DNA of 53,240 bases from NCBI GenBank assembly GCA_019058275.1, contig JAHLVW010000118.1, forward strand, positions 1 through 53,240, written 5' to 3'. The notes under the pieces were generated by a model that had not been told where the DNA came from, ran no database searches, and saw nothing but the letters and a program-made list of their open reading frames with translations. The stretch is from Candidatus Heimdallarchaeota archaeon. GTDB taxonomy: Archaea > Asgardarchaeota > Heimdallarchaeia > JABLTI01. The position numbers and the translations under genes were made by a program. Below are positions 43,657-49,397 of the stretch, piece by piece; positions within the stretch are counted from its first letter, which is position 1, and every line of letters starts with the position of its first letter.

Positions 43657-44895
43657 ATGTCGAAAAAGAAAGAGGAAAAGGATGCTCCTAAGAAAAAGAT
43701 ATCCACTAAGAAAAAGGAAGAGAAACAAACTCCCCTAGATGAATTGGTAGAAGACGCTTATCAAAGTGTTTTAGAAGAAGACGATAAAACAAAGAAGACT
43801 CCCAAAGCAAAAGCTGATGATGAAGAAGAGAAACCAAAGAAAGGTACGAAAACTACAAAGAAGAAAAAAGATGAAGAGGAAGAAAAAGCAAAAAAAACTC
43901 CTACATTGACAACATTCGAGGGGGGCTATTTCGATGCTATTTCTAGAGACGATGGAAAAGAAATTCCTGTTCAAGATCTTCCGGGAGTTGGACCTGCTAC
44001 TGCACACAAGCTAAAGGAAGCGGGGTTAGTATCAATTAGATCGATTGCTCTTTCTAGTATAAAAGAATTAGTTGATAATGCTGATTTGGGTGAAAAAACA
44101 GCTGCTAAGCTCATTAAAATGTGTCAAGAACAAGTTGGGTTGACATTTAGTACAGCAGATACTCTCTATACTGAACGACTTGGTCTCGAGAGGCTAACCA
44201 CTGGTTCTGATAATCTTGATGAGCTTTTTGGCGGTGGAATTGAAACTGGTAACATTACTGAGCTCTTTGGTGAGTATCGTACAGGTAAAACACAAATTGC
44301 GCATCAATTATGTGTTACTGTTCAGCTTCCAAGAGAACAAGGTGGATTAGAAGCAAAAGCAGCGTATATTGATACCGAAGGAACATTCAGACCAGAAAGA
44401 ATCGTGGAAATGGCAGAACGATTTGGGCTTGATCCACAGCAAACACTTCAAAATATCACTGTTGGTAGGGCATATACTTCTGATCATCAAGTAAATTTGG
44501 CTCGAGATGTTAGTGTAATTGCTCGAGAAAAAAATATTAGACTGGTTGTGGTCGATTCACTCACTTCACACTTTAGGGCAGAATATATCGGTAGAGGAAC
44601 TTTAGCTTCTCGTCAACAGCATTTGAACCAACATATTCACTTCTTGTTGAAATTAGGTGAAATGCATCATGTAGCAATAGTAGTAACAAACCAAGTTATG
44701 GCTCGTCCTGACTTCTTTTTCGGAGATCCAACCGCACCAATAGGCGGTCACATTGTTGCTCATTCGTGTACAACTAGGGTTTATCTTCGCAAATCTAAAC
44801 AAACAAAACGTGTTGCTCGAATTGTCGACTCACCAAATCTTCCAGAAGTTGAGACCATTTTTGAAATCTTAAGTGATGGAATACATGATGGATAG
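43657..44895 (+). CDS. radA: DNA repair and recombination protein RadA with ~100-aa charged N-terminal extension
   Basis: DLPGVGPATA HhH, GEYRTGKTQ, IDTEGTFRPER, DSLTSHFRAEYIGRG and TNQV. Confidence 0.97.
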   Translation: MSKKKEEKDAPKKKISTKKKEEKQTPLDELVEDAYQSVLEEDDKTKKTPKAKADDEEEKPKKGTKTTKKKKDEEEEKAKKTPTLTTFEGGYFDAISRDDGKEIPVQDLPGVGPATAHKLKEAGLVSIRSIALSSIKELVDNADLGEKTAAKLIKMCQEQVGLTFSTADTLYTERLGLERLTTGSDNLDELFGGGIETGNITELFGEYRTGKTQIAHQLCVTVQLPREQGGLEAKAAYIDTEGTFRPERIVEMAERFGLDPQQTLQNITVGRAYTSDHQVNLARDVSVIAREKNIRLVVVDSLTSHFRAEYIGRGTLASRQQHLNQHIHFLLKLGEMHHVAIVVTNQVMARPDFFFGDPTAPIGGHIVAHSCTTRVYLRKSKQTKRVARIVDSPNLPEVETIFEILSDGIHDG

Positions 44896-45046
44896 TGAAG
44901 TAAACTATTCAAATAATTAGAGAAGGAATTTCCCTTCAATATTCTATTTTTATCCAAGCTCTATAAACAAATAGTTACAAACTTATTCAATGATATCACA
45001 ATTGAGGTAGAATTTGTATTTATAATCAAGAAAAAGAAATAAAGTA

Positions 45047-45075
45047 GGTATAAACGCTTTGCTATCGTTTATACC
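45047..45075 (-). terminator. hairpin plus T-rich tract downstream of the small peptide ORF
   Basis: GGTATAAACG (45047-56) and CGTTTATACC (45066-75), followed on the minus strand by TACTTTATTTCTTTTT. Confidence 0.55.
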
Positions 45076-45127
45076 CTCCAGACTAAAGTTTAATCTCCCA
45101 TAGTGAAATTACTTCTATGTAATTTAC

Positions 45128-45274
45128 TCAGAAGATTCCAGTATCGTCATCCATAGCTCCTTGAACGCTTGTTGGTTCGCCAATGACTTTTTCAACGGCA
45201 ATTCCTCCAATGAGGAGGGTGAGAAGTATTGTAACTGCGGCTACTACTTTTGGATTAACCTTTTTCATTTTCAT
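45128..45274 (-). CDS. 48-aa secreted pro-peptide MKMKKVNPKVVAAVTILLTLLIGGIAVEKVIGEPTSVQGAMDDDTGIF
   Basis: Below the ORF-track cutoff. More GC-rich than the surrounding spacer; basic n-region, 18-aa h-region and short acidic tail. Confidence 0.75.
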   Translation of the reverse strand: MKMKKVNPKVVAAVTILLTLLIGGIAVEKVIGEPTSVQGAMDDDTGIF

Positions 45275-45473
45275 TTTTCAACTCGTACAATATTTATTAA
45301 ATATATGCAGCATATAAGAGCAAAATGCCCTTAGCTTAAATAAATAACTTATATGAGTTTTTAATTCTTTCGCGAAAAATCTATATAAAAACAAATGTTT
45401 TTATTTTTGTCGATAGTCATTTACCTATTTAGTTTTATAATGAATTTAAACCTCTAGTAGTTAGAGGAGATAG

Positions 45474-45511
45474 AATTTGAGTGAGAAAAACAATTTTCTC
45501 TCACTCAAATT
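45474..45511 (-). terminator. 13-bp inverted repeat at the stop of the first receiver gene
   Basis: AATTTGAGTGAGA / TCTCACTCAAATT. Confidence 0.5.
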
Positions 45512-45998
45512 ACATCTTCAAGATATAGCCTATATCATCTTCCCAAATAATGAATCCGTTCCTATCCGATATCATAGAAAAAATATCTTCAACTCGGTAT
45601 GAGATAGAATCAAAATTCAAACCAACAAATTCAGGATTATGTGGTTCAATAAAACGATTGATTTCAGATAGAATATCATCTATTTTCACTGGTTTAGCAC
45701 GAAATCTGATCCGCCATTTCATTGCATCTTCTTTATTTACACTAGGATCACCAGATATCATTAGAATTTTTGATGATGGATTTCTTGTAAGAAGTTTTTG
45801 TGTAAGAATTAACCCATTTAATTTTGGCATTTTATAATCTACAATTATAATTTCTGGTTTTTCATCTAAGCTATCATATAAATGAATAGCTTTCTCACCA
45901 TCTTCTGCATCAATTATATCATACCCTTTACTTATCAGTATCTCCTTGTAGAGCTTTCTAATGTGTTGATTGTCTTCAACAATCATAATTCTACACAT
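45510..45998 (-). CDS. response-regulator receiver (CheY-like) protein with ~45-aa C-terminal tail
   Basis: IVEDN, IVDYKMPKLNG, MISG and KPV. Confidence 0.93.
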   Translation of the reverse strand: MCRIMIVEDNQHIRKLYKEILISKGYDIIDAEDGEKAIHLYDSLDEKPEIIIVDYKMPKLNGLILTQKLLTRNPSSKILMISGDPSVNKEDAMKWRIRFRAKPVKIDDILSEINRFIEPHNPEFVGLNFDSISYRVEDIFSMISDRNGFIIWEDDIGYILKM

Positions 45999-46130
45999 TT
46001 TTCAATCATTTCCTTATTTTTCGATGGGGTTATAGAGGAATGCTGCTGTCCCCTCATAATTATCAATATTGAAAGTGCCTTTTTTCTATTACGACAAAAA
46101 TTTGTAAGTAATTAGAAACTCAAAAAGAGC

Positions 46131-46213
46131 ATTCTCAGCGTTCTAAATGCAATTTTCTACTTTCTTATAGAGTTTAATCCTCTGCTTAATTTTATCCCTC
46201 AGAAATCTACATT
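46131..46213 (-). promoter_or_regulatory. conserved two-box upstream element, copy 1
   Basis: Minus strand AATGTAGATTTCTGAGGG-N47-ATTTAGAACGCTGAGAAT. Confidence 0.65.
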
Positions 46214-46297
46214 AAAAATGAAGTTATTCTTTCATATTATCTGGAGAATATCACCACAACCTCAAAAATTATATGCATCAACTAGTTTCCATAAGCT

Positions 46298-48085
46298 ATG
46301 CTTGCATCATTGAAGAGAGAATTAATGACTGATATGCGTAAAATTATACGTCTTAATTCAGTTGATACAAGAAACTTAGTTGATTCCTTCAATAGTACAT
46401 TTCATAAAATAACAAAGATAATTTTTGCTCATTTTAAAGAAGAAATAAAACCCATAAAAACAACCATTAGTTTAGGTTCAGTTGATCCAGCATTTAGCGT
46501 ATCGTATGGTGTTAATCGAAATAAAAATGAAATCATTATTGCTGATTGGATTTTTGAATTGCCAAAGATGATAAAAGGTTATATCCTCTATTTTATTATA
46601 GTTAAAGAAAGTATTTTGTATTATCTAAATCCTGAATTCCTATATGAATTACGAGAAACAGAGGAAGCAATTGTTAACATTATAACAATTTTGTTATTAG
46701 CTGAGGTTTTTGAAAGCAGCTCATTAGATAGTCCTCTAATTGCTTCAATTACAGCTAGGATTCATTCAACTGAAATCAGTGGTAGGAACGCTCATTATTG
46801 GGTTAACTTATTGCATTTATTAATTGCTAAAAAGATATCTTTTAGTGAAGTAATTAATGCAATCAAGGGTGTATTTGATAAACCATTTGAAAAGCAACCA
46901 GAAGCTGAGCTTGTAAAAGGTTTTAGTAGTTGGATTTTTGAGAATGCAGTTAGAGAGGAGGATGTAATCTCTCCGATTTATTTATCAAACAGGTTAATTG
47001 ATACAGTTGATAATCTATTGGAATTTGGTTATGTTATTGGTACTGCTCCTAATATTGCTGATAAAATGAATCTTCATGAGAATACAGTTCGTAATCAAAT
47101 ACAGTTTCTTTCAGAGAATTATGCTACGTTTTGGAGACCTGAAATTAACCTAGAGAAAATTAATTTGCATAATTATTTCTTAAAAATAAAAATAAAAGAT
47201 TCAAAATCATTCGATAAAATAAATCAAATTATCACAGAAATCCCTTACATTAAAACATTATTTCATGGAAAATATTCTGATGAGCAAATCATCTATACAC
47301 CCACATTAATATGTCCTCATATTGTAGCTAATGGTTTAGATGCTAGATTAACTGATTTCAAAAATAAAAAGCTAATAGAAGATTATACATTGCAAATTAC
47401 TAGAGAAAAGAAACATTTTGCTACCATAACAAGCTATCCTTTAAAACCAGACAAAAAAACATTTCAACAGTTAATCGATGGAAAATATGAACCATATTTA
47501 CGTAACTACCTATTTACTCATAGTAAGAAAGAATTTTCAATGGTAATTGAAGATGATGTACCTATTGATTATAATTTATTGTTCTTTTTAGCTATTTTAC
47601 GAATGAAATATATGTTAAGATCTCGTGTTGGTGTTTGGGTCAATGAATTACCAAAGCTATATCAATTAAATGATATTAGTAGTGCTGATGTTGCTAAGCA
47701 AACTGATTTTCTTAACCAAATAGAAATTCGAGCAAGAAAGAGAGGATTTTTGGCATATTGCTTTTTCATTCGTTCATTAACAAGAAGAGGTAGTGATATT
47801 TTAGTCACTGAAATTCAAGATATTGATGATTATCCTGAAAAATTCATAAAGGAGACTATAGAAAAACTACGAATTTTCTCCTTTTTGGGCCAAATCACTC
47901 TTTATGATCGCATTATTCTTACCATGCCAGGTGTTTCTTATCATCACTATATTAAAGACATTATGGCAACAACACTTGATCAAGTCGGAATTAAATCGAC
48001 ATTTTACACTATTGGATTGCAACAATCTAAATTCATACCATTTCATGATTTATTTGATTTTGACGAACAAAAATGGAAAGCATAA
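46298..48085 (+). CDS. large putative transcriptional regulator with central Lrp/AsnC-like HTH and ligand-binding fold
   Basis: IADKMNLHENTVRNQIQFL...PEINLEKINLHNYFLKI is an Lrp-type HTH and linker; unknown ~220-aa N-terminal domain. Confidence 0.65.
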   Translation: MLASLKRELMTDMRKIIRLNSVDTRNLVDSFNSTFHKITKIIFAHFKEEIKPIKTTISLGSVDPAFSVSYGVNRNKNEIIIADWIFELPKMIKGYILYFIIVKESILYYLNPEFLYELRETEEAIVNIITILLLAEVFESSSLDSPLIASITARIHSTEISGRNAHYWVNLLHLLIAKKISFSEVINAIKGVFDKPFEKQPEAELVKGFSSWIFENAVREEDVISPIYLSNRLIDTVDNLLEFGYVIGTAPNIADKMNLHENTVRNQIQFLSENYATFWRPEINLEKINLHNYFLKIKIKDSKSFDKINQIITEIPYIKTLFHGKYSDEQIIYTPTLICPHIVANGLDARLTDFKNKKLIEDYTLQITREKKHFATITSYPLKPDKKTFQQLIDGKYEPYLRNYLFTHSKKEFSMVIEDDVPIDYNLLFFLAILRMKYMLRSRVGVWVNELPKLYQLNDISSADVAKQTDFLNQIEIRARKRGFLAYCFFIRSLTRRGSDILVTEIQDIDDYPEKFIKETIEKLRIFSFLGQITLYDRIILTMPGVSYHHYIKDIMATTLDQVGIKSTFYTIGLQQSKFIPFHDLFDFDEQKWKA

Positions 48086-48188
48086 AGCTCTTTTTTGTGC
48101 AAAAAGCAGTATTTTGACGTGTTTTTGACATTTATTCTTGAATTTTTGTCGTTTTATGAATTATTTGGTTAAACGATCAGTTGATTAA

Positions 48189-48272
48189 AATGTGGATTTC
48201 TGAGGGGGCAGTTTCCAGTGGAAAAGCGATTTCTGTGAGAGGAGAAAAAATCCAATTTAGAACGCTAAGAAT
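48189..48272 (+). promoter_or_regulatory. conserved two-box upstream element, copy 2
   Basis: AATGTGGATTTCTGAGGG-N48-ATTTAGAACGCTAAGAAT. Confidence 0.65.
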
Positions 48273-48413
48273 CGATTTTTTTGATTTTTAACATATGATG
48301 AGGATATTCCCGCAATATAAAAAAATACTTTTGGTTAATATTAACTTGAGTGCACATCAGCGCTTATAGACCGGAGAATAAAGCAAAGTAAATCCCATCA
48401 GCAATTATAGGAG

Positions 48414-48785
48414 TTGATTAAAAAGATGTGTAAAATAATGATTGCCGAGGATGATCCACAAATTAGAAATCTCTTCAGAAAGATACTCATAAGTAAGGGA
48501 TATGAGACTGTAGAGGCAACTGATGGGGAGCAAGCAATAAGAATCTATGATAAACTAGAAAATAAGCCGGATATAATTATTGTAGATTTTCGTATGCCAA
48601 AGGTAAATGGGTTAGAAGTTACTAGAGAGATTCTTAAAAGAGATCCCTCAAGCAATATTCTGATGATTACTGGTGACCCACGTGTCAACCGTAATAAAAT
48701 GGTAAATAGTGGAATTCGATTTAAATCCAAGCCTGTTAGAATGGACGAATTTCTCAATGAAATTCGAAGCTTTGCTCAAACCTGA
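48414..48785 (+). CDS. stand-alone response-regulator receiver protein (paralog of 45510)
   Basis: IAEDD, IVDFRMPKVNG, MITG and KPV. Confidence 0.94.
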   Translation: MIKKMCKIMIAEDDPQIRNLFRKILISKGYETVEATDGEQAIRIYDKLENKPDIIIVDFRMPKVNGLEVTREILKRDPSSNILMITGDPRVNRNKMVNSGIRFKSKPVRMDEFLNEIRSFAQT

Positions 48786-48896: not shown

Positions 48897-49397
48897 ATGC
48901 AGATCCCAAAACTAGTCCATAGAAAAAACTCGAAAAAATTAACAGTAGAACTCATACCTACTACTGTTCGTTCCAAATCTCTTTTCCAAATTTATACTAA
49001 AAACAGATGTTTAGATGTATGGACCGAAATTAAAGATGAACTATTAGAAAGAGAAGGTAAAAAGTGTTGGATATGCGGGAAGAAGAGCATGCACTTATTT
49101 GTGCATGAATTTTGGGAATACGATGATGACAAATCACTCATGAAACTGCAAGAGATTCATCATTTGTGCAATAAATGCCATAAGATTAAACGCACTGATT
49201 TCTGGTTTTTCACAGATTATGGTAAAGAACAACTTAAAAAATTAGACATCAGTCCTGAGGATTTAATTAAACACTACTGTAAAGTAAACAAATGTGATTT
49301 GAAAGATTTTGGTCAGAATTGGCGTGAAGCTGTCGATCTTTGGAAAACAAGAAGCGAACAAGAATGGATTCAAGATTATGGTGAGTTTTTACAATAG
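48897..49397 (+). CDS. HNH-like endonuclease
   Basis: CWICG...HEFWEYD...LCNKCH. Confidence 0.75.
   Translation: MQIPKLVHRKNSKKLTVELIPTTVRSKSLFQIYTKNRCLDVWTEIKDELLEREGKKCWICGKKSMHLFVHEFWEYDDDKSLMKLQEIHHLCNKCHKIKRTDFWFFTDYGKEQLKKLDISPEDLIKHYCKVNKCDLKDFGQNWREAVDLWKTRSEQEWIQDYGEFLQ

Follow-up and report, generated by a model that had tools for sequence, protein, structure and literature searches.

A candidate pro-peptide and tandem Lrp-like receptor pair in a single family of Heimdall-group Asgard archaea

Introduction

The RRNPP(A) systems of Bacillota and their phages (Rap-Phr, PlcR-PapR, NprR-NprX, Rgg-SHP and AimR-AimP) are characterized by a pro-peptide of 10-100 aa with a basic N-terminus and a hydrophobic core, secretion through Sec with maturation by peptidases, a pro-peptide gene beside that of the receptor, and a receptor of 250-500 aa built of tetratricopeptide repeats (TPR), whose activity changes when the mature peptide binds (PMC10075063). 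In the archaeon Haloferax volcanii, DFS, the best-studied archaeal quorum signal, is secreted, chemically undefined and sensed via the kinase-containing two-component system QarABC, in which QarC is a stand-alone receiver (PMC13464002). Literature searches returned no archaeal signal peptide-receptor pair, and no description of the pair reported here, a micro-open reading frame (micro-ORF) for a putative exported pro-peptide and the gene of a 595-aa regulator, which lie in a 53,240-nt stretch of a Candidatus Heimdallarchaeota archaeon (contig JAHLVW010000118.1; the whole stretch is called the window below). The genome, referred to as G000, is 4.12 Mb in size with 32.5% GC and is 93%-complete.

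Like the RRNPP(A) pro-peptides, the micro-ORF product is small and of predicted Sec type, with a basic N-terminus, a hydrophobic core and a candidate signal at the C-terminus; its gene stands by that of a predicted cytoplasmic receptor, and a genome may carry many paralogous pairs (PMC10075063). The receptor, however, has no TPRs and measures ~573-621 aa, combines a predicted pseudo-zincin domain with a tandem Lrp module, has its predicted pocket in the lumen of a beta-barrel and belongs to an archaeal host. Because TPRs are missing and the length lies outside 250-500 aa, the pair is not a member of RRNPP(A) (PMC10075063), although the length and build of the pro-peptide and the gene adjacency agree with that class; with no homology between them, any likeness is convergent. 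A stand-alone receiver is involved in Rap-Spo0F, whereas the receivers here are seen only as neighbours. Haloferax DFS/QarABC is similar in joining an archaeal secreted signal to a stand-alone receiver in the response, but neither a gene-encoded pro-peptide nor an Lrp-like receptor is described there. On balance, we lean towards a peptide-receptor signalling pair that works like RRNPP systems without being one of them.

Results

A first-pass annotation of the window had proposed a peptide-signalling locus made of a tiny exported peptide, two receivers and a large regulator, and all four ORFs were present where it had placed them: the micro-ORF at 45128-45274 (minus strand), the receivers at 45510-45998 (minus) and 48414/48426-48785 (plus), and the 595-aa ORF at 46298-48085 (plus). 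The 4-kb stretch is uninterrupted in four public assemblies, which are possibly the source of the stretch itself. The locus is more than a chance arrangement, as the top tblastn matches of the micro-ORF in the genome adjoin three paralogues of the regulator, one of which is flanked by two near-identical copies. Five regulator paralogues (24-41% identity) were found in the genome, and five of its seven peptide-family ORFs lie at most 1.1 kb from one of the six regulator genes.

Gene neighbourhoods were read in G000, its relatives and metagenome loci. A family peptide ORF was located at most 1.1 kb away from 47 of 60 distinct regulator genes of relatives and metagenomes, bearing out the expectation that small signal-peptide ORFs would accompany regulator homologues elsewhere. 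Among the remaining 13, eight meet a contig end within 150 bp, and the other five make up a clade of their own, C, whose neighbours are larger exported proteins; every A- or B-clade regulator gene with intact flanks has a family peptide. Kin among the 60 regulators are not independent, but in a quick tree both branches of the deepest split show the pairing. The distance between the two genes is 14-375 bp in 45 of the 47 linked cases; at the locus of this window and in G009, one receiver gene stands in between. Three layouts occur, namely divergent at ~280-375 bp (clade A), tandem with the peptide upstream at ~90-110 bp, and convergent with 14-63 bp between stop codons (clade B), and the linkage has therefore outlasted rearrangement. 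When 400 genomes were searched with a peptide profile, members were detected in 11/11 relatives of the same Asgard family and in one other genome, whose contig (L043, G209:C25) is 95.5% identical to G007 in spite of assignment to another family and was probably mis-binned. Strong and full-length regulator matches share this range (11/11 plus the one contig). By these searches, the peptide family is restricted to one Heimdall-group Asgard family. The wider regulator scaffold extends to other Asgard groups and, judged by structure, to Bathyarchaeota; eight loci of distant regulator homologues in other Asgard families held no convincing small exported ORF and no match to the peptide HMM, a search that a different peptide family could escape.

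The micro-ORF had been annotated with 48 codons from an ATG at 45274. The frame stands, but its start is probably the second ATG at 45268, giving 46 aa (45128-45268, minus strand), because all homologues begin M-K/R-K and the spacing to the Shine-Dalgarno (SD)-like motif (45278-45284, minus strand) then equals that of the orthologues. Motifs of the GAG/GGAG type precede nearly all peptide homologues. The product has a basic N-region, a hydrophobic h-region of ~17 residues ending in a Gly-Gly helix breaker, and an acidic, Gly-containing tail. The 60 distinct sequences of the family are 43-50 aa long and share an invariant Lys at position 3, an h-region of ~17 residues, a Gly-Gly or Ala-Gly break after the hydrophobic stretch, and small residues at -3/-1 around positions 21-26; K2, K3 and K7 of the N-region are strongly conserved. 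Gene callers predict the micro-ORF in several contigs. The proportion of nonsynonymous differences (pN) was below that of synonymous differences (pS) in 21/21 peptide-gene pairs compared, and the micro-ORF is under purifying selection, as the signalling proposal would have it. The downstream hairpin and T-tract reported earlier exist: a stem-loop at 45046-45076 (-13.1 kcal/mol) followed by the T-tract (together 45022-45076, minus strand) forms a terminator-like end of the predicted peptide transcript, and its stem is conserved, with two-sided (compensatory) changes in 8/9 pairs across 10 homologous loci. In one sub-clade (L001, L015, L016, L018, L020, L025 and L079), the interval from the peptide stop to the terminator-like hairpin contains another conserved stem-like element together with a purine-rich motif, possibly as a structured 3' leader for the next receiver gene.

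About ten peptide copies are not linked to a regulator, and two of them were compared with linked peptides of the same genome. In G000, the unlinked copy of C105 and the C42-linked peptide are identical at 16/16 of the last 16 residues (pN 0.00, pS 0.75) and at 13/27 front positions. G004 has an unlinked copy in the equivalent chromosomal position, which agrees with the linked peptide of that genome at 16/16 tail positions (pN 0.00, pS 0.64) and 18/27 front positions. Silent sites of these matched-tail copies are saturated. Between G000 and G004, linked and unlinked copies both differ at 5/16 tail positions, and the fronts follow orthology. Thus the two loci have tracked one tail sequence per species, as expected if both serve one receptor, and the comparison marks the tail as the constrained, genome-specific part of the peptide. 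On C105 (G000:C105:63747-64018; L136:3748-4019), two family peptides stand in tandem at a great distance from the regulator genes; the second carries TAA at codon 7 and is a pseudogene or an assembly error. G006 has several near-identical peptide copies that broke the assembly, since the same peptide gene stands at four contig ends (L142, L143, L144 and L091).

The regulator (595 aa; 573-621 aa across the family) gave no Pfam or NCBIfam match above cut-off, including PF13404, PF01037 and TPR families. Its AlphaFold2 model (pLDDT 93.7) shows HTH (helix-turn-helix) and RAM folds, so that the Lrp/AsnC-like label of the first-pass annotation holds by predicted structure and not by sequence profile; the predicted non-TPR nature of the receptor agrees with the model, in which a zincin-like alpha/beta domain and two RAM domains were found and no helical repeat array. 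The C-terminal module (residues 226-595; 46973-48085, plus strand) comprises an HTH, two RAM domains forming a pseudo-dimeric barrel, and another HTH-like unit that is degenerate. The first HTH is intact, with weak HTH matches at residues 250-271 and ESM Atlas neighbours that carry HTH_AsnC/HTH_24. Residues 231-595 best match the siroheme decarboxylase NirDL/AhbAB (PDB 4ch7, 4czc), a fused tandem Lrp fold (4czc: Z 15.2, rmsd (root-mean-square deviation) 5.6, 276 aligned, E 7.6e-8), and the module matches the single Lrp/AsnC proteins PH0061, PF0864, LrpA and AsnC at Z 6.6-7.6. Identity to NirDL is, however, 11-12%, the regulator has an extra N-domain, and haem-biosynthesis genes are absent from the loci read. 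The order of HTH and ferredoxin-like RAM domain is that of the Lrp/AsnC feast-famine regulators, but two RAM units share one chain with an additional 225-aa N-domain instead of a single ~150-aa unit, and a polar barrel lumen is predicted to take a peptide where Lrp takes an amino acid at a dimer-dimer site.

The N-domain (residues 1-225; 46298-46972, plus strand) is predicted to have a zincin/gluzincin-like fold, with the metal ligands lost. Folded alone, residues 14-227 matched DPP III (Z 7.3), M1 aminopeptidases and thermolysin (Z 6.8), overall at Z 6-7.3 and rmsd 4.4-4.8; the Z-scores are middling, and the top 18 rows are all of zincin type. Foldseek found no match for this domain below E 0.001, its E-values being weak at above 0.7. 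Zincin domains also occur in sensors such as IrrE and BlaR1. Unlike those zincins, the regulator lacks the zinc-binding histidines: at the HExxH position it reads K103-E104-S-I-L, with only E104 kept, and both histidines are absent in every homologue inspected. The models thus describe the regulator as a pseudo-zincin domain joined to a tandem Lrp (NirDL-like) module.

Co-folding of the regulator with peptide residues 17-46 gave a score of 0.79 against 0.09 for the best control, a mark reached by 58/80 solved complexes and 2/110 mismatched pairs; runs share at least 34% of contacts, with a partner pLDDT of at least 45. In the predicted complex, the last 10 residues (37-46) lie inside the barrel of the two RAM domains and not in the zincin cleft. 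As these are nearly the mature peptide proposed by the first-pass annotation, the model is in line with its choice of the tail as the ligand segment, and supports, as a prediction, tail binding in the double-RAM barrel. Conserved basic residues (280, 371 and 373/492) line the predicted pocket and face acidic tails.

The claim that the tail is released at a V-Q-G|A site did not survive: the motif is absent from orthologues and lies 13 residues past the h-region, and it was rejected as a signal peptidase site for lack of conservation. By the -3/-1 rule, signal peptidase likely cuts near residue 24 and would release ~22 residues, and this cut followed by trimming is the likelier route. Genes for an archaeal signal peptidase I and for more than 10 family-5 peptide-binding proteins were found in the genome, along with three M50 matches, an equipment that is permissive, and not specific, for export and re-import; rhomboid proteases and PF00717 were not found in the 93%-complete genome.

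Both stand-alone receivers carry the canonical acidic pair, phospho-acceptor Asp, Ser/Thr and Lys, and they are twin paralogues, as first described, with 55% identity over 118 aa. Receiver 1 (45510-45998, minus strand; 162 aa with a C-terminal extension) has E8-D9, D54, S82 and K102 (PF00072, E 4.8e-17); receiver 2 (48426-48785, plus strand; 119 aa from ATG, 123 from TTG at 48414) has E8-D9, D54, T82 and K102 (PF00072, E 1.9e-21). Because close homologues adjoin ~18 clade-A loci, in most cases following the peptide or regulator gene, the receivers are a recurring part of clade A. Their position on either side of the regulator, taken earlier as the defining layout, is specific to this genome: in G007 and G004 the receiver 1 counterpart is found downstream of the regulator, in G007 together with the second receiver and with the peptide directly divergent, and twin flanking receivers were rejected as the core layout. 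An 18-bp box upstream of receiver 1 (46196-46213, minus strand) recurs upstream of receiver 2 (48189-48206, plus strand) and is common to orthologous receivers. It moves with the receiver and not with the peptide; a role as general operator of the family is unsupported, as the box is confined to this receiver lineage and does not precede the peptide gene. As the annotation had stated, the window has no histidine kinase; the contig has none, and the six HisKA matches of the genome are all on other contigs. The receivers are best read, from these data, as regulated outputs that would act on kinases encoded elsewhere. An inverted repeat with 23-bp arms (45468-45517) overlaps the receiver 1 stop codon and is probably its terminator.

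Several neighbours were recorded in addition. At 48897-49397 lies a 166-aa ORF that has two Cys pairs; its HNH-like match is weak (IscB model, E 1.3e-4, far below cut-off), and it accompanies the receivers in G007 and G004 as well. The window also encodes, at 43657-44895, a RadA extended at its N-terminus by a long Lys/Glu-rich stretch, and radA adjoins several clade-A peptide-regulator loci (L012, L013, L031, L147 and L152). Clade-C regulators adjoin 190-500-aa exported proteins of no known family (L003:2123-2836, L089:6928-8070, L154:1196-2683, L155:2172-2741 and L087:5847-6518). A D-P-G-x-G-G-G segment right after the signal, found in two of these neighbours and in one unlinked protein (G000:C98:106000-106698), resembles the tails of L147 and L148, which suggests that the micro-peptides arose from, or mimic, an N-terminal pro-segment. 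In another Asgard family, distant regulator homologues come in tandem pairs (L097, L098 and L099), with a MoxR-like AAA gene on one side and cdc6 or DNA polymerase genes on the other, and a small exported ORF was not seen at these three loci. Short forms of 350-385 aa without the zincin-like domain occur in other Heimdallarchaeia families (L054, L055 and L059), with exported proteins following or flanking them. A viral origin was rejected, as viral contigs gave no relative, and an Rfam search gave no meaningful match. A look-up of RNA data holding the locus listed none, which speaks neither for nor against its expression.

Discussion

Of the original interpretation, a selected signal-peptide-like gene linked to a non-TPR regulator, with its tail in the co-fold pocket, stands; the cleavage site and the twin-receiver layout do not. 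In the signalling reading, the micro-gene would yield a Sec-type pro-peptide, which signal peptidase would cut near residue 24 to free an acidic tail of ~22 residues. The tail would be trimmed to ~10 residues and re-imported by an ABC transporter of the Opp/Dpp type; its binding within the double-RAM barrel of the regulator encoded alongside would alter the DNA binding of that protein and switch transcription. Likely targets would be the peptide gene, where it is divergent, and the stand-alone receivers; the receivers could relay the signal into phosphorelays of kinases encoded elsewhere, and the several paralogous pairs per genome would act as parallel channels. Secretion, cleavage, trimming, import, DNA binding, targets and density sensing are parts of this scheme that we infer, and the term 'quorum sensing' would apply to the pair on the same footing.

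Several observations weigh against this reading. The N-region is conserved more than is usual for a signal peptide. The co-fold comparison was limited to this peptide and the controls. Covariation between tails and regulator, which the first-pass annotation had put forward as a check, was not significant: pocket and tail showed none beyond the phylogeny null (partial correlation 0.006 in a partial Mantel test; 619/1000 random column sets were as high), and 19 independent pairs gave a suggestive rho of 0.33-0.45 (p 0.05-0.17). A post hoc rule linking P335 to a tail Gly held in the close relative L150, failed in the new locus L153, was inapplicable to three others and was rejected. Short-tract gene conversion could contribute to the matched tails, and the numbers of sites are small. 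Such a peptide is missing beside the five clade-C regulators and beside distant homologues from other Asgard groups, so the scaffold can work without it. Nor do the loci share a conserved protease, transporter or target gene.

The linkage, tail selection and co-fold would be explained equally well by a cell-autonomous ligand-receptor pair, in which the micro-protein would serve as a read-out of the machinery for export or envelope proteolysis. The tail might reach the regulator on stalled export or cleavage, or after short-range release and recapture, or might tether the regulator to the membrane. The strongly conserved K2, K3 and K7 fit this idea, as do an h-region of 17-18 residues that could be an uncleaved anchor, and clade-C regulators beside larger exported proteins, two of which have a similar D-P-G-x-G-G-G after the signal. 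By the positive-inside rule, however, the tail would be placed outside, away from the cytoplasmic regulator, and an export sensor would have no need of as many as six paralogous pairs that differ in their tails, or of tails that vary from species to species. Taking its variants together, we regard a cell-autonomous pair as unlikely, yet deserving serious consideration.

Amino acids are the ligands of Lrp RAM domains, and tetrapyrroles those of NirDL; the barrel might likewise sense an amino acid, a tetrapyrrole or a short peptide, with the peptide as an output, that is, a secreted antagonistic, surface or kin-recognition peptide under control of the regulator. The divergent layout of clade A, with a shared promoter of 280-375 bp, is typical of a regulator and its target, and the non-significant covariation of pocket and tail also suits an output. 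Yet linkage is kept in the convergent layouts, with 14-63 bp between stops, where co-regulation needs none; immunity, modification and export genes are not conserved in the loci read, and the co-fold score is well above its controls. We therefore rate a peptide output as distinctly unlikely.

We find it highly improbable that the 595-aa protein is an enzyme, either a peptide-processing protease or a siroheme-decarboxylase-like protein, with the micro-ORF as its substrate or an unrelated neighbour. The zincin-like N-domain and NirDL as best overall match point that way, but neither HExxH histidine is kept in any homologue inspected, the first HTH is intact and the identity to NirDL is low. H-x-Y-x-R, which we take to be the Ahb/NirDL motif, was not seen at the matching strand. 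Finally, a chance open frame, to which the small size and missing annotation of the micro-ORF might point, is already refuted by its conservation: 60 distinct sequences, the SD spacing, the compensatory hairpin, pN < pS and the gene-caller predictions.

Whichever of the three leading readings applies, the module is undescribed. Beyond a single signalling pair, we consider evenly poised the broader proposal of a multi-channel, gene-encoded peptide communication in Asgard archaea that would be independent of RRNPP, with a tandem Lrp barrel converted to a receptor, species-specific signals and output into receivers. To this, the present locus contributes orphan copies with matched tails and the link to receivers. 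Because it is restricted to one family, the pair is unlikely to be ancestral to eukaryotic signalling. If the signalling reading is true, a named ligand and a named receptor would be at hand in Heimdallarchaeia, the group closest to eukaryotes, and archaeal cell-cell communication would become directly testable without culturing, by means of synthetic 10-20-mers and a single recombinant protein. The tandem RAM barrel would then be a new peptide-receptor architecture, convergent with the TPR receptors of Bacillota, and could yield orthogonal peptide-responsive regulators.

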